In this document: positions 1 through 62,685 of the stretch, one piece after another
Layout of the letters: each line of letters opens with the position of its first letter
Position numbering within the stretch: position 1 is the first letter of the stretch
Source: an uncultured Candidatus Saccharibacteria bacterium
GTDB taxonomy: Bacteria > Patescibacteriota > Minisyncoccia > 2-02-FULL-40-12
NCBI GenBank assembly: GCA_964368135.1
Contig: CAYIZI010000002.1
Location: 16,241-80,240, forward strand
Reading direction: 5' to 3'
DNA length: 64,000 bases
Notes under the pieces: model-generated
Seen by the model: only the letters and a program-made list of their open reading frames with translations
What the model was told of the DNA's origin: nothing
The model's database searches: none
Made by a program: the position numbers and the translations under genes

Positions 1-315
1 GGAAAATTCATGAAACAAAAAATCCTCCCTGATTACGTTTCCGTAGCTTGAGAGAATTCCTTTTATTCTGATAACTTCATCTTTCAGGTTAAAGCCGTCG
101 AAATTTTTCCTCAATTCTCTTAAAGATGCTTCTTCAATCTGGCGAATCCTTTCTCTGGTAATCTTATATTTTTTCCCGATAGATTCTAAAGTTTCTACGG
201 TCCCAGTTTTTAAACCAAATCTCCTGGAGATAATATCTTCGCCCCTAGAACTTAAGGATTTTAAAACATCTGAAATAGAGTTAGTGAATTTGGTTTTTTC
301 TTGCTCATTCAACAT
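1..315 (-). CDS. sigma-70 region 4 domain protein (N-terminal part; 3' end runs off the window)
   Basis: Minus-strand ORF starting at the ATG at 313-315 and running off the window start. The translation MLNEQEK...DIISRRFGL...TLESIGKKYKITRERIRQIEEASLRELRK matches sigma-70 region 4.1/4.2 HTH consensus (RFGL; TRERIRQIE). It is not in the ORF track because no stop codon lies within the window. Confidence 0.55.
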   Translation of the reverse strand, partial: MLNEQEKTKFTNSISDVLKSLSSRGEDIISRRFGLKTGTVETLESIGKKYKITRERIRQIEEASLRELRKNFDGFNLKDEVIRIKGILSSYGNVIREDFLFHEFS

Positions 316-329
316 ATCAGGGTTATAAT
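301..329 (+). promoter_or_regulatory. putative sigma-70 promoter of murD (TTGCTC-17nt-TATAAT), near-leaderless
   Basis: TTGCTC at 301-306, a 17-nt spacer, then TATAAT at 324-329. The murD ATG is at 347, so the leader is only about 11 nt and shows no Shine-Dalgarno. Confidence 0.35.
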
Positions 330-346
330 ATCATTTACTTTATACT

Positions 347-1627
347 ATGTCAACAATCAATTTGAAAAACAAGAAGATAGCTATTTTAGGGCTGGGCCGC
401 GAGGGCTCGGCCACTTTAAAGTTCCTCAAAAAAAATAAAATAAAGGCGGATGTACTGGATTTAAAACTTGATAAAAATTATGCTGATCAAATTAAAAATT
501 ATGAGGTTATTTTCAGAACTCCGGGCTTTCCCCGGCTCCATCCCGGGCTTTTGACTGCAGAAAAAAACGGAGTAATTATTTCAAGTCATATTAAATTATT
601 TTTTGACTTATGTCCGGTAAAAATTATCGGCATTACCGGCACCAAAGGAAAAACCACAACTGCCTCTCTGGTTTATCAGATTCTAAAAAGCAGGTACGGG
701 AAAAAGGTATTTCTTGCCGGGAATATCGGTGAACCGGCCTTGGATATTTTGCCAAAGCTGAAAAAAGATTCCCTGATTGTCCTTGAGCTTTCAAGTTTCC
801 AGCTTCAGGATTTATACAAAAGTCCTCACGTAGCTGTAATTACCAATGTAGCTCTGGACCATATGGATCCAGCCGGAAAATTTGCTCCGGCCACTCATCA
901 AACCGCCAAAGAATACTTTGACGCTAAGATGAATATTCTAAAACATCAAAAATATGGGGATTTTGCCATAATCCATCCATCGCTTAAAAAGAAAACTAAA
1001 AATGTAGGCCAGGGTAAAAAAATATATCCCACTCCCCTGCCCTTAAAAACCAAACTAATTGGTAGACACAATTTAGAAAATATTGCTCTGGCCGCAGCCG
1101 TCGGAAAAATCTTTAAAGTGCCGAAAAATAAAATTCTAAAAGCCGTTGAAAATTTCAAAGGCATTGAGCACCGGCTTGAATTTGTCGCTAAAATTAACGG
1201 CGTTTCTTTTTATAACGATTCGGCCGCCACCAACCCGGACGCGACTTTGACAGCGCTAAAATCATTTGAAAAACCAGTTCACTTGATTTTGGGCGGCTCG
1301 GATAAAGGATTAGATTATAAAAATTTAATAAAATATATTGCCAAAGCCAAAAATATTAAGACCGTGGTGCTTATTGGACAGATAAAGAATAAATTAAATA
1401 AATTATTAAAGAATTACGAATTACGAATTACGAATTTAAAGACCAAAAGGGTTAAAACCTTAAAAGAAGCTGTATTGACTTGTTTTAAAAGTAGTGGTAG
1501 AAATGAGGTGGTCCTTTTGTCTCCGGCGGCGGCGAGTTTTGATATGTTTGCCAACTACGCCCAGCGCGGGGATGAGTTCAATAAAATCGTAAACAGAATG
1601 GAGGAGAGAAATGCCCGGAGTAAATGA
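347..1627 (+). CDS. murD: UDP-N-acetylmuramoyl-L-alanine--D-glutamate ligase
   Basis: 426 aa. Has the Mur ligase ATP-binding motif GITGTKGKTTT, an N-terminal Rossmann segment (KKIAILGLGREG) and the Mur ligase C-terminal domain. Carries an in-frame (AATTACG)3 insertion encoding NYELRITN near the C-terminus. Confidence 0.9.
   Translation: MSTINLKNKKIAILGLGREGSATLKFLKKNKIKADVLDLKLDKNYADQIKNYEVIFRTPGFPRLHPGLLTAEKNGVIISSHIKLFFDLCPVKIIGITGTKGKTTTASLVYQILKSRYGKKVFLAGNIGEPALDILPKLKKDSLIVLELSSFQLQDLYKSPHVAVITNVALDHMDPAGKFAPATHQTAKEYFDAKMNILKHQKYGDFAIIHPSLKKKTKNVGQGKKIYPTPLPLKTKLIGRHNLENIALAAAVGKIFKVPKNKILKAVENFKGIEHRLEFVAKINGVSFYNDSAATNPDATLTALKSFEKPVHLILGGSDKGLDYKNLIKYIAKAKNIKTVVLIGQIKNKLNKLLKNYELRITNLKTKRVKTLKEAVLTCFKSSGRNEVVLLSPAAASFDMFANYAQRGDEFNKIVNRMEERNARSK
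1412..1436 (+). repeat. heptanucleotide microsatellite (AATTACG)3AATT, copy 1 (inside murD, sense orientation)
   Basis: Exact 25-nt string AATTACGAATTACGAATTACGAATT read directly on the + strand. Confidence 0.9.
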
Positions 1628-1904
1628 TCGTATTGTAATAGTCTTCCCCTCTGATTGGTCGGCTGTTGAAGTAATTAAAATCGTCTACGACTTTGAAAAC
1701 ATTATCCGGAAGGAACGAACTGTTTTCAAAGACCTGGGTGATCGGCTTAGATTTACCCTGTTCCTCAATAGACCCGATACGTCAGACGAAGGAGAGGCGT
1801 CAAGATATGTAAACTTGGCATATGAGTTTACAAACAGGCTGTTCGAAGCCGGCTGCGAATTGATTGAAACAGATATCGCCGACTTCCGCGTCTCGACCGC
1901 CTGA
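1611..1904 (+). CDS. hypothetical protein (97 aa)
   Basis: ORF overlapping the murD 3' end by 17 nt. GC is intermediate; no recognisable motif. Confidence 0.35.
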   Translation: MPGVNDRIVIVFPSDWSAVEVIKIVYDFENIIRKERTVFKDLGDRLRFTLFLNRPDTSDEGEASRYVNLAYEFTNRLFEAGCELIETDIADFRVSTA

Positions 1905-1956
1905 TCCGAAAAAACCTCTCGCCAACCAAAGAGCCTGTCTGAAGCGACCGGCTCTT

Positions 1957-2835
1957 TTACTTTTTATGCAACACCATCAAAATAGGACTGGCTACGAATA
2001 TAGATGAATAAGCCCCAGAAGCGATTCCGATAATTAAAGCTAAAGAAAAATTTTTCAAAGTCGGACCGCCGAAAATGTAAATCGCAATTACGGCAAAAAG
2101 AGTAGTTAAGGTCGTATTTATAGAACGGACTAAGGTTTGTTTAATACTCCGATGAACTGTTTCGTTAAAATTCCCTGAAGGATTTTTAAAAACATTCTCT
2201 CTGATTCTATCATAAACCACCACCGTATCATTGATTGAATAACCCAAAATGGCCAGGGCCGCGGCAATCATTGGCGCGTCAATCTGAACCCCCTTGAATA
2301 GACCGAGTAAAACAAAAACTCCGATCGGTATTAATAAGTCGTGGATTAAAGCGATAACTGCACCCAAGGCCAGAACAAAAGGACTTATCACCCCGCCGAT
2401 TTTTCTAAAAACAACGGCTAAGTAAGCTGAAATTAAGAGCAAAGCCGCTACTATCGCAATAATGCTTTTTCTTTTTAGTTCCGCGCCGATAGTTAAACCG
2501 ATTGAATCAAACCGTTTTTCCTCAAGCTCGCCCAATTGATTTAAACCATTTAAAACTTCCTGATGTTTTTCTTCCGAAATCTCCGGCATCCTGATTAACA
2601 ATCCTTTCTCACCTGCCTGTGAAATTGCCGCATTTGTTATTCCTTCTTTTTCTAAAATCTCTCTTATCCTCCCTAATTCGTAATTCGTAATTCGTAATTC
2701 ACTAAATTCTGCTTCTAACAACGCTCCACCAGTGAAATCAATCCCTAAATTCAAGCCGTAAATCAAAAACACCGCCAGAGAAGCGAGCATCAAAATAACC
2801 GAGATTGAAAAGAAGATTTTGTAGAGAGTCAGCAT
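1957..2835 (-). CDS. secF: protein translocase subunit SecF
   Basis: 292 aa. Has an N-terminal TM segment, a periplasmic domain, and the C-terminal six-TM SecD/SecF/RND-like bundle (GLNLGIDFTGG...). Size fits SecF rather than SecD. Contains copy 2 of the (AATTACG)3 repeat encoding ELRITNYEL. Confidence 0.85.
   Translation of the reverse strand: MLTLYKIFFSISVILMLASLAVFLIYGLNLGIDFTGGALLEAEFSELRITNYELGRIREILEKEGITNAAISQAGEKGLLIRMPEISEEKHQEVLNGLNQLGELEEKRFDSIGLTIGAELKRKSIIAIVAALLLISAYLAVVFRKIGGVISPFVLALGAVIALIHDLLIPIGVFVLLGLFKGVQIDAPMIAAALAILGYSINDTVVVYDRIRENVFKNPSGNFNETVHRSIKQTLVRSINTTLTTLFAVIAIYIFGGPTLKNFSLALIIGIASGAYSSIFVASPILMVLHKK
2675..2699 (-). repeat. heptanucleotide microsatellite (AATTACG)3AATT, copy 2 (inside secF, sense orientation)
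   Basis: The + strand reads AATTCGTAATTCGTAATTCGTAATT, which is AATTACGAATTACGAATTACGAATT on the secF sense strand. Confidence 0.9.
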
Positions 2836-2902
2836 AAAGTAATTCTATCATATAAAATTTTGCCGCCGACATCCATACTGAACGCCGGCGGCAACGAAAG
2901 TG

Positions 2903-3688
2903 CTAAACCTTGCTGTTTTTCGGCTGATACCAGAACAAACCTCCTTCTGTGGTCACTGTGAAATCACCGAAGAGATGAGGATACCGTTTGGTGACGATTT
3001 CTCCCACCTTACCGAAAACGAGACGAATTTCTTCTTCGGCGGTCGGGTGAGTCCGCATTTCCAGAATCCATCGAATGGTCCGCGGATTGGCTGACCAGCC
3101 GATGGTCGTAGCCAAACCGATTGGAGCGATTCGGCGCATCGCCGAGGTGATGACCTTCTTAACATGAAAAGGAACTCCCGAATCGTCAAGGCGGAAAAGT
3201 TCGGCAAGCTTGATCTGAAGTCCCTCCAAATGACGGAATGTCTCGCCGAAAACCTCAACAGCCTGCTCGTTTTCACGAATGACCGTCGGCAGCCACTGAC
3301 CAAGATCTTCGAGCCGCACAAACCGGAGGGACTCCTGGGAAATGGCTACGCCGGCACGATGCCGTACGAGTTCGTGAGTGAACACCCGCGAAACGTCGAC
3401 AAAAACAAAGTTCATCACCGGATGCTCGATGACCGAACCGTGCTTCACGTTCAAAATGTTCCCAAGGTAGTCGCTGTTGTGCTCACGAATCTTGGTGACG
3501 TTCCGGTTCATTCCAGGCTGGAAACTCCGATAACATAACCTGCCCATAACCTCCACCAGTTTTTCGGAGTCGGTCGGGGCATCGGAAACCCAATCTGGGA
3601 TGCCAAGATAATCGAGATAGGCCCAAAGTCCTTCTTCGACAATCCTGGTTTCGCCGACAAGGAAAACTTGCGGTTCGACTTTATGCAT
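2903..3688 (-). CDS. thyX: FAD-dependent thymidylate synthase ThyX
   Basis: Contains the ThyX signature ELVRHRAGVAISQESLR (RHR-X7-8-S motif); length about 260 aa. The start is chosen at the internal ATG at 3688, which follows a GGGGAGG Shine-Dalgarno at 5-nt spacing. The track ORF extends to 3745. High GC (>55%) unlike the flanks. Confidence 0.8.
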   Translation of the reverse strand: MHKVEPQVFLVGETRIVEEGLWAYLDYLGIPDWVSDAPTDSEKLVEVMGRLCYRSFQPGMNRNVTKIREHNSDYLGNILNVKHGSVIEHPVMNFVFVDVSRVFTHELVRHRAGVAISQESLRFVRLEDLGQWLPTVIRENEQAVEVFGETFRHLEGLQIKLAELFRLDDSGVPFHVKKVITSAMRRIAPIGLATTIGWSANPRTIRWILEMRTHPTAEEEIRLVFGKVGEIVTKRYPHLFGDFTVTTEGGLFWYQPKNSKV

Positions 3689-3863
3689 TGTCGCCTCCCC
3701 GATTTTTTTTGAGCGTAACGCAGTGGTACCATCCACCGTCCGCACCCTTTTTCAGTTCGACTTTTGCTGTCACTTCCTCTACGAGTTGGTTGCCATCGTA
3801 AATGATAACCCTGGCAGGATGATGAGAAGTGCCTACTTCTTGTTCAAGTTCAACCTTTACCAT
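3681..3863 (-). CDS. small hypothetical protein (60 aa), translationally coupled to thyX
   Basis: Starts MVKVELEQE..., preceded by a GGAGGG Shine-Dalgarno. Its stop overlaps the thyX start (ATGCATAA, 8-nt overlap). Same high-GC composition as thyX. Confidence 0.4.
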   Translation of the reverse strand: MVKVELEQEVGTSHHPARVIIYDGNQLVEEVTAKVELKKGADGGWYHCVTLKKNRGGDNA

Positions 3864-3944: not shown

Positions 3945-4496
3945 TCACAGAGTCTTCTGCCCCTGGAAGCGGACCCCCTGGAGTTTATCGTAGGTACGTT
4001 CGCACTCGCCATCGAGTTCCTCAAATGACAAATGAACCATGCCCATGTCGCCATAGATTCGTATTGGGACTGGGCTGGAGTTGGCTATATGGATGCGGAG
4101 CCGACCCTCCCAGCCAGGACTGATGCTCGAGATGTTGAGGCCGATGCCGACGCTGGAGTAAACAGTTTTCCCCACGCCGTGGGCAACGCAGTTCGGCGGA
4201 ATCCGAAAATACTCCAGAGTCATCGCCTCCGCAAAACCTCGCGGAGGGATGTCGTAGTACGGAACCGCTGACTTCTCAAAGTAAAACTCGTGGTCTAAGT
4301 TTAGGGGATCAAGCGTCTTGCCAGCGGCAACGGCCCAATCAAAGACCAAGATGCGCGGATCAAGCCGGGCGTCGTAGCCGGCTGGCTGAAGACCATAGGA
4401 AATGATTCCGTCTCCGGCCACACGCTCTGAAAACGGCGCAATCATCCAGTGTTCCAAAGCCATTTTCCTAATCCACCAATCGGGTTTTGATGCCAT
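3945..4496 (-). CDS. dcd: dCTP deaminase (dUTPase-fold)
   Basis: 183 aa. Has SYGLQPAGYDARL and GWEGRLRIHIANSSPVPIRIYGDMGMVHLSF, characteristic of the dCTP deaminase/dUTPase beta-barrel family. A GGGAGGTGA Shine-Dalgarno lies 4 nt before the ATG. High GC. Confidence 0.7.
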   Translation of the reverse strand: MASKPDWWIRKMALEHWMIAPFSERVAGDGIISYGLQPAGYDARLDPRILVFDWAVAAGKTLDPLNLDHEFYFEKSAVPYYDIPPRGFAEAMTLEYFRIPPNCVAHGVGKTVYSSVGIGLNISSISPGWEGRLRIHIANSSPVPIRIYGDMGMVHLSFEELDGECERTYDKLQGVRFQGQKTL

Positions 4497-21850: not shown

Positions 21851-23620
21851 ATGGCGAAGCTAAACGTAATCCAGCCCCATATCCACCCTTCAGAGGTGGT
21901 AAGGGGCATAACGGCAAGAGATCTTGAGGGTCTCAACGTTGTTTTCATCAATATGCCGCTTCGGGAAACGGCGCTACCAAACACCACACCCGAGGGTCCG
22001 CTATTAATGGCGACAAACCTGATTCGGAACTATGGGGTTAGTGCTTCAGTAATTGACCTCAACGCTTACCGGATTAAAGACGAGCTGGCTCAAAAACGCG
22101 GACTCCCGCGAGGCCGCCACCTGACCGAAGAAGAGGCCTTTGGTAAAATCCAACGCCATTTCCTCAAATTTGGCGAACCAGACCTTGTTTGCCTTTCAGG
22201 AATGATCACCACTCTGAAGTGGCAAAAAGCAGTGGCGGGAATGGTCCGCCGGCTGGTACCTAACACTATGCTCGTTTCTGGCGGGGGCCTGGCTACTGAA
22301 TTAAAAGTGGGACTGTTTAACTACACCCCTGAACTCGATGGAGTGGCCCACTCCGAAGGAGACGATGTCATCGTCAAAATCTGCTACGACGCGGCGGTTA
22401 TTCGGCGCCACGGCCGGCAACATGCTCTCAACTCGGGCAAGCTCGAACCCTATTTACTGCAGGACGGCTCCGGCCGTCTGATGTACGAAGGCGATCGGCC
22501 CGATGATTTGGACCGATTCCCATGGGTTGACCTTGAGCTTTTGCGCGAAGATGTTGACGGGGTCAAAATCCTTGAGCAATATCTTCAAGCCGAAGCTTGG
22601 GGACTTAGCGCAAACAACAGCTCGGCGGCACCGTTTGTAACCGCGCCGAAAACCACTTCGGTTTCTTCCCGCGGCTGTCCCTATGGCTGCAAATACTGCT
22701 ATCGGGGCGCCCAAGGAGAACGCAAGTGGCACGTGAGGTCGGCCCGCCATCTGGTTGAGGAAATGAAAGAACACATGGCAAAGTACGGCATAGCTTTCAA
22801 GAGCTGGCCGGACGACAACTTTGCGGTGACATTCAAAAGGATTAAGGAACTCCGGGATATCATTGTCGCAGAAGGCATCAAGATTCCCTGGGGAACCCAC
22901 ACTCGCCTCGACGAAGCCGGTGGCTTTGTTCCTAACTCACGTCAACCCCATCACGAGAGAAACTTCTTTACCGACTATATCTTTGAGGATCCGCTCCGGA
23001 TCAAGCTAATGGCTGAAGCCAACTGTAAGTACGTCGGCTTTGGACCAGAAAGCGCTCACCCAGACACCCTTGAAGAACTCGGCAAAGGAGGCTTCACTCT
23101 CAAGGCAGGTTTGATCCCAGTTGGAGTCAACGGCCATACCTACTACTTCCCCAAAGCCATGATCTATGGAACCAAGCACACCATGGAAGCGGGGATTCAC
23201 GCCAACATGACCTGGATCAAGTTTAATCCGGGAGAAACGCTGGAACGGCTCAAGCAGACAGTTGCCTTCATCAAATGGCAGATTGATTACTACGCAACCT
23301 TCGGAATACCGGAAGAAGCGGTGAATAAAAACATGTTCACTCTTACCTGGTATCCTGGGACGGAACTAATCAATCACCCTAAGGTGAGGTTAGAACTTTC
23401 GCGCGTCTTCGGTCTGAATTTCCAAAGGATCAACGGCAAGTGGGACCCTGTCTGCGATGAGGCGTTCTACCGGTATTGCCTGGAACTAGACGACGCCACC
23501 AAGCTCCTTCACGGCCCGGACGGCGAACCGCTGAACTTCAGCGAAATGCCAAACGACTTGGCCCTACAAATCAACGAGTATGTCAGCTCCGGCCAAACTC
23601 TTCGTATCCTGGACATATAA
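21851..23620 (+). CDS. B12-binding domain radical SAM protein (class B radical SAM-like)
   Basis: N-terminal cobalamin-binding-like Rossmann segment, then the radical SAM CxxxCxxC motif (CPYGCKYC). 589 aa. About 52-55% GC in about 33% GC surroundings. Strong AAGGAGG Shine-Dalgarno. Confidence 0.7.
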   Translation: MAKLNVIQPHIHPSEVVRGITARDLEGLNVVFINMPLRETALPNTTPEGPLLMATNLIRNYGVSASVIDLNAYRIKDELAQKRGLPRGRHLTEEEAFGKIQRHFLKFGEPDLVCLSGMITTLKWQKAVAGMVRRLVPNTMLVSGGGLATELKVGLFNYTPELDGVAHSEGDDVIVKICYDAAVIRRHGRQHALNSGKLEPYLLQDGSGRLMYEGDRPDDLDRFPWVDLELLREDVDGVKILEQYLQAEAWGLSANNSSAAPFVTAPKTTSVSSRGCPYGCKYCYRGAQGERKWHVRSARHLVEEMKEHMAKYGIAFKSWPDDNFAVTFKRIKELRDIIVAEGIKIPWGTHTRLDEAGGFVPNSRQPHHERNFFTDYIFEDPLRIKLMAEANCKYVGFGPESAHPDTLEELGKGGFTLKAGLIPVGVNGHTYYFPKAMIYGTKHTMEAGIHANMTWIKFNPGETLERLKQTVAFIKWQIDYYATFGIPEEAVNKNMFTLTWYPGTELINHPKVRLELSRVFGLNFQRINGKWDPVCDEAFYRYCLELDDATKLLHGPDGEPLNFSEMPNDLALQINEYVSSGQTLRILDI

Positions 23621-23644: not shown

Positions 23645-23692
23645 GAAAAAAGCCCGACAGGTTCATCTTGTCGGGCTTCGCTCTTTATTTTT
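23645..23692. terminator. bidirectional rho-independent terminator between the convergent radical SAM and cytidylyltransferase genes
   Basis: AAAAAA-GCCCGACAGG-ttcatc-TTGTCGGGC-TTcgcTCTTTATTTTT: a hairpin with an A-tract upstream and a T-tract downstream. Confidence 0.75.
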
Positions 23693-24398
23693 CGCCCCCT
23701 CTCCTCTTCAAAATCTTGCCAATCAGCCAAAACTGGTATTCGCTGTCAACTTGGAGAGAGTCTTCCTCGGTCATCTGGACAATCGCCATTTTCCCGCCCC
23801 AGCGATGGCCGATTTTATGAAATAAATCTGTCTTAGTTATATAAAAAGCTCCGTTCTCATGATAAACTTTTGGTAAATCCTGCCTGACCACTCTTTTCAT
23901 CACCGGAACTTCCGGTTCAAAAGCAACCTCTCTGCCTGACTCATCAACCTTCGGCCGCCATTTCCACTCATAGGTTTCAGGCAAAAAAGCAGTGATGCAA
24001 GAATCAAAACCTTGATTCTTTACCCTATTCACGCACTCCTTTATAATTTCTGATTTTAAAAGCGGCGAAGTCGGCTGAATGCAGGAAACGAAATCAGGCA
24101 CGTAATTTTCTTTTTCTCTTAAATAATCCAAAGCATGTTTAATTACCGGCTCAAGAGTAATCTTATCGCCAGCCAGTTCTTTTGGCCGGTCAACCACCTC
24201 GGCCCCGAATTTCTTAGCCACTCCCGCAATCTCGGCATCGTCAGTTGAAACAATCACCCTATCCACTACACCAGAATTCAAAACCGCTTCAATAGTATGA
24301 GCAACTAAGGGCTTCTCGTTTAACAATCTTATATTTTTTCGGGGCACTCCTTTGGAACCGCCCCGCGCCGGAATTATAGTAATAATTTTTGGCTTCAT
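23685..24398 (-). CDS. acylneuraminate/nonulosonate cytidylyltransferase family (CMP-NeuAc/CMP-Kdo synthetase-like)
   Basis: N-terminal IIPARGGSKGVPRKN motif; 237 aa. Confidence 0.75.
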   Translation of the reverse strand: MKPKIITIIPARGGSKGVPRKNIRLLNEKPLVAHTIEAVLNSGVVDRVIVSTDDAEIAGVAKKFGAEVVDRPKELAGDKITLEPVIKHALDYLREKENYVPDFVSCIQPTSPLLKSEIIKECVNRVKNQGFDSCITAFLPETYEWKWRPKVDESGREVAFEPEVPVMKRVVRQDLPKVYHENGAFYITKTDLFHKIGHRWGGKMAIVQMTEEDSLQVDSEYQFWLIGKILKRRGGEK

Positions 24399-59257: not shown

Positions 59258-60375
59258 TTTATCAAGGATAGTAGCCCCTCGGCATAATTTTTAATGGCGG
59301 CCTTTTTCTCAAAATTCTTAACAATTTCCAGGCCAGCGACACTGTACTTTTTATAATCTTCGAGATTATTAAGTAACTCAAAAGCTTTCTCGGCAATGTC
59401 ATTTCCATCCCAATTAATTATTCGGCCGGATTTTTTATCTTCAATAATGTCTGGAATAATCCCAACCGGAGTGGCAATTACCGGTATCCCGCAAGCCATC
59501 GCTTCAAGAAGGGTTCTTGGACCACCTTCATTATAGGAAGGGACAATTAATATTTTAGATTGATTCATTAATTTTGCTATTTCTTCTGGATCTTTGGCCC
59601 AACCGTAAAACATAACATTGTCTTTCAATTCTAACCTCTCGCTTCTAACTTCTAACTTCTTTTTTTCTGGGCCATCGCCGACAATCAATAATTTGGTATC
59701 CCGCATATTATATTTAATATTTAATATTTTTAGAGAATCAATTAATAGATTTAATCCTTTGTTTTTTACTAAACGACCAACAAAGATTAAGTCGTATTTT
59801 TTGCCCAAGTTTAGAGGTTTAAAAGTATCTAAATCAATATAAAAAGAAGGGATATAGGCAATTTTTCCTTCAGACACTCCTGATTCTAATAAAAATTCTC
59901 TGACTTGTTTTTTATTCACTACCCTCACTGCTTTTACTTTTAAAGAATCATATTTAATAAAAAGACGGGTCAGCCAGCGATAAAGTTTTTCTTTAAAATC
60001 TGCAGCTTTGGGATAGCCGGGAATATGATGAATTTCAAGTACATAGGGAACTTTTATTTTCTGCCAAAGCAATCTTGCGCCTATTCCATTATAAAAAGGG
60101 GGGTATTCATGAACCGTCATCAAATCAAATTTCTGGTCTCTGTAAATTTCCTGACCTCTTTTTAAAATCCAAAAGGGCTGCCAAATCTTTGGCCAGGGCG
60201 AAGGATGAATAAAAACATTACCAAAATAATTTGCCGATAAATGGGGAGAAGAAACCTTGGGAATAATAATATCAATTCTGTCCCAGTATTTATGAAATTC
60301 TTCCAAAGTATTATAAAAAGCGCCGCGTTTAACCTCGGCTAAAGATTTATCTCCTGAAATCATTAATAATTTCAT
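59254..60375 (-). CDS. glycosyltransferase family 4
   Basis: LLEAMACGIPVIATPVG motif. Contains an in-frame (GAAGTTA)2.5 microrepeat. Confidence 0.7.
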   Translation of the reverse strand: MKLLMISGDKSLAEVKRGAFYNTLEEFHKYWDRIDIIIPKVSSPHLSANYFGNVFIHPSPWPKIWQPFWILKRGQEIYRDQKFDLMTVHEYPPFYNGIGARLLWQKIKVPYVLEIHHIPGYPKAADFKEKLYRWLTRLFIKYDSLKVKAVRVVNKKQVREFLLESGVSEGKIAYIPSFYIDLDTFKPLNLGKKYDLIFVGRLVKNKGLNLLIDSLKILNIKYNMRDTKLLIVGDGPEKKKLEVRSERLELKDNVMFYGWAKDPEEIAKLMNQSKILIVPSYNEGGPRTLLEAMACGIPVIATPVGIIPDIIEDKKSGRIINWDGNDIAEKAFELLNNLEDYKKYSVAGLEIVKNFEKKAAIKNYAEGLLSLIK

Positions 60376-61553
60376 CGAGTTAAGGCGGCTGCAGTTTCTT
60401 TTGTCATTTTATCAACGTTGAATTTTTTGGCTGTTTTCTTACCCTCTTCTATAAATTTATCTCTTATGTCTTCGTGCTCAAAAATTGCCTTAATCGCCTC
60501 AACTAAGTTTAATTCGTCATTATACTTGACCATAAAACCGTTTCCGCCTTGTTTTATAACTTCTGGATTTCCACCGGCATTGGTGGTAATCACCGGCACT
60601 CCGACAGCCATGGCTTCCAGAATCTGATGGGAGAAACCCTCATAGGCCGTATTCAAAACGAACATATCCGCCGCCGCCAAGTAAGTTTTAAGCTCCTCTT
60701 GCGACTTTCTACCGACTATATAGACTTTATTGTTTAAGCCTAAATTATTTTTCATCAATTCCAAATTTTCTTTTTCTGGACCATCACCAACTATAACTAA
60801 TCTCAAAAATTGATTCTCTTTTAAAAGTTCAGGCATTATTTTTATGAGCATCTTAAAGCCCTTCCAGGGAACTAATCTTCCGGCTGACAAAATAATACTG
60901 CCGGAAATTCCGATCTTTTCTCTGGCTTTTTCTTTTTCCAGGTTTAACGGCTTAAAATCCGTACCGTTATAAATAACCTTGATTTTCTCAGGCTTTACTC
61001 CCCAGTACCGAACAACTTTTGCCAAAAAACGAGATGGAACAACAACCATATCGGCTGCTTGGCAAACTCTTTCCTGGATTTTTCTCAAAGTATTAAATTT
61101 ACCTGATAATTTTTTATTTTGAAAATCAATTACTTCAGTAATCTCGTTTTTTGAATTTTGAACATGGTATTGTTCCCAGGAGTAATCGCCGGTTATCTTA
61201 ACAATTAACCTCTTCTTTAAAAATTTATTGGCTAAGTAACTCGGATAGCCTGAACTCACCGGCCCTTGGGCGTAAATAAGACTGCTATCTTTTGCTACTT
61301 TTAACAATTTCATCATATATCGAAAGTAAGTAAAGATTTTGGGCGGAAAGTTTTTTATACGGTGAACTTTAAAATTAAGCTCTTTATCTTCGGGAAACTT
61401 TCTTTTTATAGAACGGACAACCACATCTACTCCAAAACCAGCCCCAATGAGTTTTGGTGTTATTTGTCTGATATAACTTGATGGCCCGCCGATATCAGGC
61501 CAAAAATTTCCTGCTGCAATAGTGATTTTCTTTTTAACTGATACTTGCTTCAT
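60372..61553 (-). CDS. glycosyltransferase family 4
   Basis: ILEAMAVGVPVITTNAGG motif. Confidence 0.7.
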   Translation of the reverse strand: MKQVSVKKKITIAAGNFWPDIGGPSSYIRQITPKLIGAGFGVDVVVRSIKRKFPEDKELNFKVHRIKNFPPKIFTYFRYMMKLLKVAKDSSLIYAQGPVSSGYPSYLANKFLKKRLIVKITGDYSWEQYHVQNSKNEITEVIDFQNKKLSGKFNTLRKIQERVCQAADMVVVPSRFLAKVVRYWGVKPEKIKVIYNGTDFKPLNLEKEKAREKIGISGSIILSAGRLVPWKGFKMLIKIMPELLKENQFLRLVIVGDGPEKENLELMKNNLGLNNKVYIVGRKSQEELKTYLAAADMFVLNTAYEGFSHQILEAMAVGVPVITTNAGGNPEVIKQGGNGFMVKYNDELNLVEAIKAIFEHEDIRDKFIEEGKKTAKKFNVDKMTKETAAALTR

Positions 61554-62685
61554 AAACTTTTCTCATTTCTTCGGCTATTTTGTCCCAGTTATATTTTTCT
61601 TTAACTAAACTTTGCCCATTTTTAATTAAATTTTCTCTTAAACTATCATCAGTTAAAATATGAGAAACTTTCTCAGCCAAGCTTTTATGGTTATTTGACT
61701 CACAAAAAAGACCAGTCTCTCTATCTTTAAGAAAGTCGTTAATGCCGCCGACTGGCGTGGCAACTACCGGTAAACCGGCGGCCATGGCTTCTAAAAAAGC
61801 AGTGCCTAAGCCCTCTGACCGAGAAGGCCGGACAAAGACATCAGCCTGAGCTAAATACCCGGGAACCTCTTCATTTGGAATATTGCCAAGAAAGTTTACT
61901 CTATCTGCGACGCCCAACTCTCGGCTTAATTTTTCTAAACTTTTGCGTTCAGGTCCGTCTCCGATAATTCGTAATTCGTAATTCGTAATTGATAAATTTT
62001 TTAATGATTTAATAAGAATATCAATTCCGTTTTTTCTAACCAACCTCGAAACCGTGATTATCACTTTTTCTTTATTGTTTTTCTTATTACTTATTACTTT
62101 TAAATTATTACTTATTGTTGCTCCATTCGGCACAATGTAAAGCGGCGCTTTTTTATTAAATTTTTTGGCAAATTCGGATAGATAACTGCTAATGGCTGTA
62201 ATTGTGTCGGCTTTTCTTATAATTCTTCTCTGCCAAAATCTATCAAAAGGCGAATTGCGGCCTAAATCACCTTCTTGTAAAGTCAAAACAAATGGAACCT
62301 TGGGATAAAAAAATTTAAAAAGGTAGGCCGCGGCCGAACCTTGCGAAGCCATCATCCCGTGAATTAAATCATATTTCTTAACTTTATGTAGATTTATGGC
62401 TTTCAGAAAACCCAAATTCGGCAAAAGCGGTTTGTCTAAAAATCTGTTGCCGGCGCCGATGCGGTAGACATTAACATTGCCGATTTTTTCAAAATCAGGC
62501 AGGCCTCTCTTTAGCTTGGCGGTTATTAAATCAAACTCTATATTGATCAGTCGGCCGGTTATTTCTTTTACGGCTAACTCCGCTCCGCCGACAAATGGCA
62601 GATAAGCCGTTGAAAAAAGTAAAATTTTCATCATTGATTTATTTTTTTGTTTTACTATAATGTCATAAATGATTGATAAAATCAA
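61534..62685 (-). CDS. glycosyltransferase family 4
   Basis: FLEAMAAGLPVVATPVGG motif. Contains copy 3 of (AATTACG)3 encoding SITNYELRI, and a (GTAATAA) microrepeat. Confidence 0.7.
   Translation of the reverse strand: MILSIIYDIIVKQKNKSMMKILLFSTAYLPFVGGAELAVKEITGRLINIEFDLITAKLKRGLPDFEKIGNVNVYRIGAGNRFLDKPLLPNLGFLKAINLHKVKKYDLIHGMMASQGSAAAYLFKFFYPKVPFVLTLQEGDLGRNSPFDRFWQRRIIRKADTITAISSYLSEFAKKFNKKAPLYIVPNGATISNNLKVISNKKNNKEKVIITVSRLVRKNGIDILIKSLKNLSITNYELRIIGDGPERKSLEKLSRELGVADRVNFLGNIPNEEVPGYLAQADVFVRPSRSEGLGTAFLEAMAAGLPVVATPVGGINDFLKDRETGLFCESNNHKSLAEKVSHILTDDSLRENLIKNGQSLVKEKYNWDKIAEEMRKVYEASIS
61966..61990 (-). repeat. heptanucleotide microsatellite (AATTACG)3AATT, copy 3 (inside GT4 gene, sense orientation)
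   Basis: The + strand reads AATTCGTAATTCGTAATTCGTAATT, identical to copy 2. Confidence 0.9.

Follow-up and report, generated by a model that had tools for sequence, protein, structure and literature searches.

Probable long-standing heptanucleotide microsatellites of the unit AATTACG in murD, secF and a glycosyltransferase gene of a candidate phyla radiation bacterium

The stretch of contig CAYIZI010000002.1 analyzed here (64,000 nucleotides, referred to as the window) carries the same short tandem repeat of the heptamer AATTACG inside three unrelated genes, murD, secF and a gene for a GT4-family glycosyltransferase. These arrays are, in our judgment, probably old coding heptanucleotide microsatellites that have been kept at the same positions of the three genes in a Parcubacteria clade of the candidate phyla radiation (CPR), and not foreign insertions. 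Arrays at the same sites were found in orthologues of all three genes whose products are 69-70% identical to those of the window, and the arrays would therefore predate the splits between these lineages. AATTACG is a new unit among the known dispersed heptamer families (STRR, TAACTGA, GGGAATC).

The source contig (97,952 bp in ENA) derives from the 0.1-µm fraction of Hainich groundwater. In searches with MurD, SecF and GT4, the nearest protein relatives of the window carried the labels Parcubacteria or Patescibacteria. No Rfam family reached the gathering score anywhere in the 64-kb window.

Identical arrays in three unrelated genes

The exact 25-mer AATTACGAATTACGAATTACGAATT, which can be written as AATT(ACGAATT)3, is present in three exact copies in the window, at 1412-1436 (+), 2675-2699 (-) and 61966-61990 (-). 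This is far above chance, since in 100 dinucleotide-preserving shuffles the number of matches, with up to three mismatches allowed, averaged 0.00 and never exceeded 0. Tandem Repeats Finder (TRF) reported period 7, 3.7-3.9 copies and 100% matches at the three sites. Each array runs in the sense orientation of its host gene and the reading frame differs among all three, so that cyclic permutations of the peptide NYELRIT appear in different contexts (KNYELRITNL in MurD, SELRITNYELG in SecF and SITNYELRII in GT4). A comparison of the flanks revealed no homology between the three loci beyond the array itself; the same unit is found at three dispersed loci within 64 kb, in unrelated surroundings. 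In 12.5 kb of the same contig beyond the window there were no further AATTACG arrays. On all these points (the three copies of the 25-mer, the constant sense orientation in three frames and the unrelated flanks) the original prediction, made from the letters of the window, was borne out.

Arrays and relics at the orthologous sites

The gene order around the first two arrays (sigma factor, murD, small open reading frame (ORF), secF) is kept in relatives, and the orthologous DNA of the sites can therefore be read directly. In the relative L123, whose MurD is 70% identical, the same codons read AAT TAC GGA TTA CAG ATT ACG GAT, with length and frame unchanged. This sequence can be parsed as AATTACG GATTACA GATTACG GATT, that is, a degenerate heptamer array of 25 nt encoding NYGLQIT. 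Three of the four differences from the window array are A>G substitutions at position 1 of consecutive units, a concerted change of the units rather than a set of independent hits. The corresponding site is GAATTAAGAATTAA (encoding ELRI) in L124 and encodes PELEI in L127. The window MurD exceeds these three orthologues by 0 to 4 residues, never by 7, and its array region aligns to the structure PDB 3lk7 with a gap of 5 residues in total. In the AlphaFold model the array residues make up the C-terminal end of a helix (347-358) and a loop (359-364) of the C-terminal domain.

At the GT4 site, the protein P0133 (69% identical; present in L328 and L329, from two samples) is encoded by a perfect 32-nt array at the same codons, giving ELRITNYELRI without any indel. 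A neighbor-joining tree of GT4 did not place P0133 and the window protein as sisters. About a dozen further orthologues have the same length and preserve relics of the form I-x-[ND]-[YW]-E-L-[RQKLW]-I (INDWELRI, IENWELQI, IENYNLQI, VADYELKI and LDYELWI), while the DNA of L330, L331 and L332 consists of degenerate arrays of the same length, with the rare CGA codon retained in L330. The structure PDB 2jjm aligned through the array without a gap. The AlphaFold model is confident (mean predicted local distance difference test score 91.9, with block means of 94-98 at the array residues). In it the array covers residues 215-222 of the 365-aa product, in a loop (213-217) and the start of a strand (218-224, ELRIIGD) that precedes the GDGPE loop of the C-terminal Rossmann domain, with YELRII lying in a core beta-strand. 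The array, as a confidently modeled loop plus core strand, therefore encodes native structure and not an added loop.

The SecF array comes directly after the DFTGG (Sec_GG) motif, in the periplasmic region, and over this stretch the alignment with the SecDF structure 5xan has an insertion of 4 residues on the 5xan side. The SecF protein P0254 (L333; 69% identical) has ACGAATTATGAATTA at the site, where ACG AAT TAT GAA TTA encodes TNYEL; this is a 2-unit array with a perfect run of 15 nt, and the window SecF is 3 aa longer than this relative, not 7. Two other relatives, L123 (1790-2656, -) and L334 (3001-3864, +), have doublets of a different heptamer after DFTGG (TTAGAAG TTAGAAG and TTAGAAC TTAGAAC), nested within a higher-order tandem repeat of 21 nt (LEVRSEN LEVRSIR and LELRTEN LELRTIR). 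The third unit of these doublets deviates precisely where an in-frame TAG would appear. The TTAGAAG unit was seen, with the same deviation, in another gene of the window as well (a glycosyltransferase gene, at 59642-59660). Between lineages the extent of the perfect run varies at each site: it is 26 nt in the window and 32 nt in the relative for GT4, 27 and 15 nt for SecF, and for MurD a perfect 26 nt compares with 25 nt of degenerate array.

The original prediction had described the arrays as frame-proof mini-insertions in essential genes, perhaps left as a footprint by a mobile mechanism. The frame-proof coding repeat stands. The insertion does not, given that orthologues hold related arrays or relics at all three sites and that the net length differences never amount to +7 aa. 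It had set the same peptide in orthologues, encoded by non-repetitive DNA, as the sign of an ancestral sequence; the peptide is indeed largely there, and the orthologous DNA is in several cases itself an array or a degenerate array. Since orthologues carry the peptide at the same sites, these would be old repeat loci and not recent insertions.

A recent and frame-proof gain could nonetheless be imagined as an in-frame cassette of 21 nt (three units) that some mobile or targeting mechanism placed at AATT(A) sites. The arithmetic is right (5 nt of pre-existing AATTA plus 21 nt give the observed 26 nt), the window has no intermediate lengths, the murD array has TTAAAG on both sides, and MurD has 4-5 residues more than some homologues and SecF 3 more. 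We nevertheless find such a cassette very hard to credit. It is contradicted for GT4, whose length is unchanged with respect to both the dozen or so orthologues and the solved structure, and it does not sit well with the same-site arrays in orthologues of all three genes. No comparison showed +7 aa, and there was no clean gap of 21 or 25 nt in any orthologue comparison for the three sites. Target-site duplications, terminal inverted repeats and shared flanks were absent from the three sites, with the exception of TTAAAG at murD, and neither an empty site nor a mobile-element feature was found. As a target-site duplication TTAAAG was discarded: it is a common hexamer (46 copies in the window, and 162 of TTAAAA), the same flanks are kept in L123, and at secF and GT4 the flanks hold no exact duplication from which an in-frame insert would result.

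Heptamer repeats across the window

Period 7 is favored in this DNA. We counted 6 period-7 runs with at least 10 consecutive matches where 0.15 were expected from Markov-1 simulations; the other periods gave no runs (4, 5, 8, 9, 10 and 12), two (6) or one (11). The 12.5 kb of the contig outside the window contained two more period-7 runs and none of period 5, 6, 8 or 9. The arrays, their host genes and the shorter runs are listed in Table 1.

Table 1. AATTACG arrays, host genes and shorter period-7 runs in the window
Feature	Position	Strand	Description
Array 1	1411..1436	+	(GAATTAC)3.7, 26-nt perfect run; encodes N356-T362 (NYELRIT) of MurD
Array 2	2674..2700	-	(GAATTAC)3.9 on the coding strand, 27-nt perfect run; encodes ELRITNYEL of SecF
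Array 3	61965..61990	-	(AATTACG)3.7 on the coding strand, 26-nt perfect run; encodes ITNYELRI of GT4
Host murD (UDP-N-acetylmuramoylalanine--D-glutamate ligase)	347..1627	+	426 aa; Pfam Mur_ligase_M/C (PF08245, PF02875)
Host secF	1957..2835	-	292-aa ORF; PF07549, PF02355; public gene calls start 23 codons later (269 aa)
Host GT4-family glycosyltransferase	61534..62685	-	ORF of 383 aa, 365 aa in public gene calls; within a glycosyltransferase gene cluster
Short heptamer run	59642..59660	-	(TTAGAAG)2.7 on the coding strand (CTTCTAA on +), encodes KLEVRS; glycosyltransferase neighboring GT4
Short period-7 run	59710..59729	-	ATATTTA x 2.9; same glycosyltransferase gene as 59642..59660
Short period-7 run	62083..62099	-	CTTATTA on +; TRF extends it to 62116 with 77% matches; ~100 nt upstream of array 3, same GT4 gene

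Codon use, assembly and reading frame

Two other conceivable sources of the identity between the arrays are convergent selection for NYELRIT and its permutations and, as the original prediction had also mentioned, a chimeric assembly or library artefact. For the first, the motifs E-L-x-I and N-Y-x-L are ancestral at the MurD and GT4 sites. However, three of the seven array codons are rarely used in the genes of the window (CGA represents 8.9% of Arg, ACG 10% of Thr and TAC 32% of Tyr codons), and the probability of all seven array codons given the peptide is 2.7e-4 per site. Because these codons are non-preferred, the identity of the arrays arises at the DNA level and not by peptide selection. 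Besides, the three frames produce different peptides in different structural contexts.

As to an artefact, repeats are able in principle to create chimeric joins, but the ORFs are intact and the homology to orthologues is continuous on both sides of each array. Positions 1..3521 of the window, which include the murD and secF arrays, agree base for base between the ENA contig and the Logan assembly of run ERR3858115, and the GT4 protein is identical in translated Logan contigs. When proteins were clustered at 90% identity, MurD and SecF were each represented by one sequence and GT4 by two, which differ in the start codon alone. The independent agreement of the two assemblies rules out an artefact, and related arrays are present in other samples and genomes. 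Altogether, we give practically no weight to either of these two sources.

The coprime arithmetic (7 and 3) of the original prediction holds, the sense strand being stop-free and the antisense strand stop-bearing. It requires a correction in one detail, the TAA of the antisense unit having been assigned to one frame. As 21 nt run through all seven codons, (CGTAATT)n with at least three units has TAA in every frame. For the same reason a stop among the seven cyclic codons closes any array with at least three units. Among the GAATTAN units GAATTAC alone is stop-free, GAATTAA, GAATTAG and GAATTAT all yielding stops. The reading-frame filter is insufficient as a full account of the shared unit, with 1,608 of the 2,340 heptamer classes free of stops and 68 classes available as seeds in the window: its coding strand has 85 period-7 proto-repeats in these 68 unit classes, half of them stop-free. 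GAATTA ranks as the 210th most frequent hexamer.

Origin and maintenance of the arrays

If the arrays are old microsatellites, they could grow, shrink and stay pure by slipped-strand mispairing combined with correction against a transiently misaligned template, and the latter process could also convert neighboring quasi-repeats into perfect units at constant length. The ancestral E-L-x-I and N-Y-x-L peptides, when written in A+T-rich codons (GAA TTA; AAT TAC), would already hold a proto-repeat AATTA...AATTA. Selection on the reading frame would act as a filter, passing arrays in sense orientation only, net length changes divisible by 3 and, for units that reach 3 copies, those without stops; the sense orientation alone would survive because the antisense one has TAA in all frames. 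The encoded peptide may be tolerated in MurD and SecF as part of variable surface segments and in GT4 through its mimicry of the native alternating pattern of loop and beta-strand. Under such a scheme a function of the repeat itself is not required.

Several observations weigh against this proposal. The three longest arrays use one and the same unit, a choice for which the reading-frame filter does not account. They are perfect and share a 25-nt core, while the arrays of relatives at the same sites are degenerate, and such purity would call for a homogenizing force. Neither of the length differences observed, +9 nt in SecF and +12 nt against some MurD orthologues, is divisible by 7, and intermediates of single-unit slippage would be lethal, because a change of ±1 unit puts the essential murD and secF out of frame. 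There are no other AATTACG runs of at least 11 nt in the 64-kb window and hence no intermediates of 11-24 nt. Copy-number variants of the MurD, SecF and GT4 proteins within the population are not on record either, in protein clusters that reflect consensus assemblies rather than reads. Finally, hairpin propensity does not single out AATTACG. Slippage driven by AATT·AATT mini-hairpins was considered and dropped, the predicted value (-2.9 kcal/mol) being no better than that of control heptamers and the commoner TAACTGA being without any fold.

A simple sequence repeat (SSR) with a unit that is not a multiple of 3, in a glycosyltransferase for surface polysaccharides, is the classic context of a contingency locus (reviewed in PMC11868660). 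By this analogy the arrays might be phase-variation switches, where a frameshift caused by gain or loss of a single 7-nt unit would turn the gene off, something meaningful for a surface-polysaccharide GT4. The likeness lies in the unit itself, placed inside ORFs that include a glycosyltransferase of a polysaccharide gene cluster; both the GT4 gene and the neighboring glycosyltransferase gene hold further short heptamer runs. Unlike contingency loci, the same array occurs in the essential murD and secF, where the off state is lethal (GT4 is the only host that fits dispensability), the copy number is low (just 3.7) and no length variants were seen between the identical assemblies or in the protein clusters, which represent consensus sequences and not reads. 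Moreover, the GT4 array is located mid-gene and encodes a core strand. A switch of this kind seems to us most doubtful.

AATTACG in other genomes and phages

The species-representative genomes contain at least 120 stretches with three or more units of AATTACG. Among the matches listed, 57 are cyanobacterial, mostly from Nostocales, with at least 11 other phyla accounting for the remainder; the groups represented include Bacteroidota, Acidobacteriota, Chloroflexota, Planctomycetota, Ignavibacteria, Verrucomicrobiota, Firmicutes, Spirochaetes, Proteobacteria and, within the CPR, Shapirobacteria. In IMG/VR we found 64 stretches with three units of AATTACG, compared with 22 and 5 for the composition-matched controls AATTAGC and ATTAACG and 107 for TAACTGA, the known shared heptamer. 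The usual form elsewhere is AATT(ACGAATT)n(A), with length peaks at 19, 26 and 33 nt, and the window arrays share this canonical form. Contigs with several dispersed AATTACG arrays are common.

Across 120 loci from other phyla no array lay antisense in an ORF, and of the 114 arrays that could be classified only 9 were within ORFs, though ~76% of the sequence is coding. Apart from this depletion from ORFs, and another from the intergenic regions between divergent genes, these loci showed no rule of orientation or distance relative to neighboring genes. The 5' phase appeared to be fixed, as 81 of 95 arrays of at least 28 nt begin at the first A of AATTACG (some are preceded by G). This was at first sight a sign of a polar mechanism and was set aside on account of the flanking units, which have no CG: the heptad 5' of the arrays resembles AATTAT[T/G], so that the boundary of the array sits at the missing CG.

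Some arrays have a more complex arrangement. In a number of genomes and phage contigs, namely L015:6990-7450, L036:70-330, L159 and L146/L154, they lie inside larger repeats ~80-200 nt apart or number 5-6 per 10-18 kb, and in L019 and L030 they form inverted pairs ~70-90 nt apart. Arrangements of this sort may represent composite repeat elements and not simple microsatellites. In the Candidatus Shapirobacteria genome UBA2283 (L082) a 32-nt array is located in a short open stretch, apparently intergenic.

Such a distribution raises the question of whether (AATTACG)n is actively propagated or maintained by a process or function specific to the unit, for instance as the target of a conserved protein that binds DNA or RNA, by ectopic conversion from one array to another or by templated repeat addition. 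Several facts are in line with this: the abundance among species representatives over at least 12 phyla, with another CPR lineage included, the excess over matched controls in IMG/VR, the dispersed arrays on many contigs, the fixed 5' phase and the perfection of all window arrays against degenerate arrays at the same sites in relatives. TAACTGA is similarly scattered without a known mechanism (PMC4679880), and a process or function tied to its unit has been suspected, though not demonstrated. However, the controls are above zero, and the loci selected for AATTACG also carry 69 arrays of ~50 other heptamer units in 0.89 Mb, so that many of the genomes concerned are just heptamer-rich. The fixed phase is explained by the CG-less flanks, and the orientation toward neighboring genes follows no rule. 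Arrays of just 26-27 nt, with no homology in their flanks, offer little for recombination, no candidate protein or template was identified, and hairpin propensity at best equals that of the controls. On balance we consider a process of this kind unlikely. Its broadest version, in which (AATTACG)n would be a pan-bacterial element like TAACTGA, spread or maintained by conversion, templated synthesis or protein-binding selection, appears quite improbable; if true, it would explain both the perfect arrays at orthologous sites of essential genes over deep divergence and the recurrence of the unit across 12 or more phyla as well as in phage contigs.

Other regions of the window

Next to murD and secF (~38% G+C) are thyX (2903-3745; 52% G+C) and dcd (3945-4496; 55% G+C). 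At the position of thyX, one relative has a ThyA-type gene (L125); in another (L123) secF and dcd have no thymidylate synthase gene between them, and the neighborhood is different in L127. This suggests gene replacement or horizontal acquisition of thyX and dcd. A 589-aa ORF at 21851-23620, with ~53% G+C in a window of 39% G+C and adjoining a gene on the opposite strand (23685..24398), may be another horizontally acquired island.

Implications and comparison with known heptamer repeats

The arrays described here indicate that a heptamer microsatellite can form part of the core structure of essential proteins, and that lineages with proteins just ~70% identical can retain and re-purify it at the same codons. 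They are also a compact case of reading-frame arithmetic acting as a filter on repeats (7 x 3 = 21 nt, one open orientation, one open unit out of the four GAATTAN). For annotation and assembly, the practical lesson is that identical 25-mers in unrelated genes need not mean chimeras or mobile DNA. The CPR and the unit AATTACG join a short list of heptamers common to distant phyla. A literature search with the 14-mer, its reverse complement and the peptide gave no match.

Among long bacterial SSRs heptamers are an over-represented class, with slippage as the proposed cause, and units that are not multiples of 3 are normally excluded from coding regions (Mrazek 2007, as cited in PMC4679880 and PMC4692102). 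To judge from these citations, the window arrays resemble such SSRs in consisting of perfect head-to-tail 7-nt units beyond chance in a genome where period 7 is favored. They depart from them in location, the long SSRs being mostly intergenic and typical of large genomes (Nostoc, Xanthomonas, Burkholderia), whereas here they are coding, in two essential genes of a small CPR genome.

Dispersed families made of a single heptamer are known as STRR in Calothrix, GGGAATC in Xanthomonas, GGGGA(C/T)T in Nostoc and TAACTGA in Beggiatoaceae, Cyanobacteria and Bacteroidetes (PMC4679880, PMC4692102). The GGGAATC and GGGGA(C/T)T repeats (Rehm et al., 2015; PMC4692102) are G-rich and their preference for four units is explained by G-quadruplexes, a structure that AATTACG does not have. 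Otherwise these two families and the STRR of Calothrix and other Nostocales are similar to AATTACG, with genome-wide dispersed arrays of one heptamer, of preferably about four units; their under-representation in coding regions and between divergent genes is a trend shared by AATTACG.

The comparison with TAACTGA (MacGregor, 2015; PMC4679880) reveals differences in position. TAACTGA is found mainly just upstream of start codons, where a regulatory role has been proposed, and its copies within ORFs are at protein termini, while in the window the AATTACG arrays lie mid-gene, at positions that orthologues share, and those of other phyla obey no positional rule relative to starts. In other respects the two units are much alike. 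Both form many short dispersed arrays of one heptamer (2-6 copies for TAACTGA), and both are common to distant phyla without any transfer mechanism being known (PMC4679880 for TAACTGA). In both, one orientation has stops in all frames, and TAACTGA copies within ORFs are confined to the opposite one, in which the product is a cyclic peptide of 7 residues, LSVISYQ (PMC4679880). Even the hosts overlap in their pathway, with a Mur protein in either case, MurG for TAACTGA (PMC4679880) and MurD for AATTACG.

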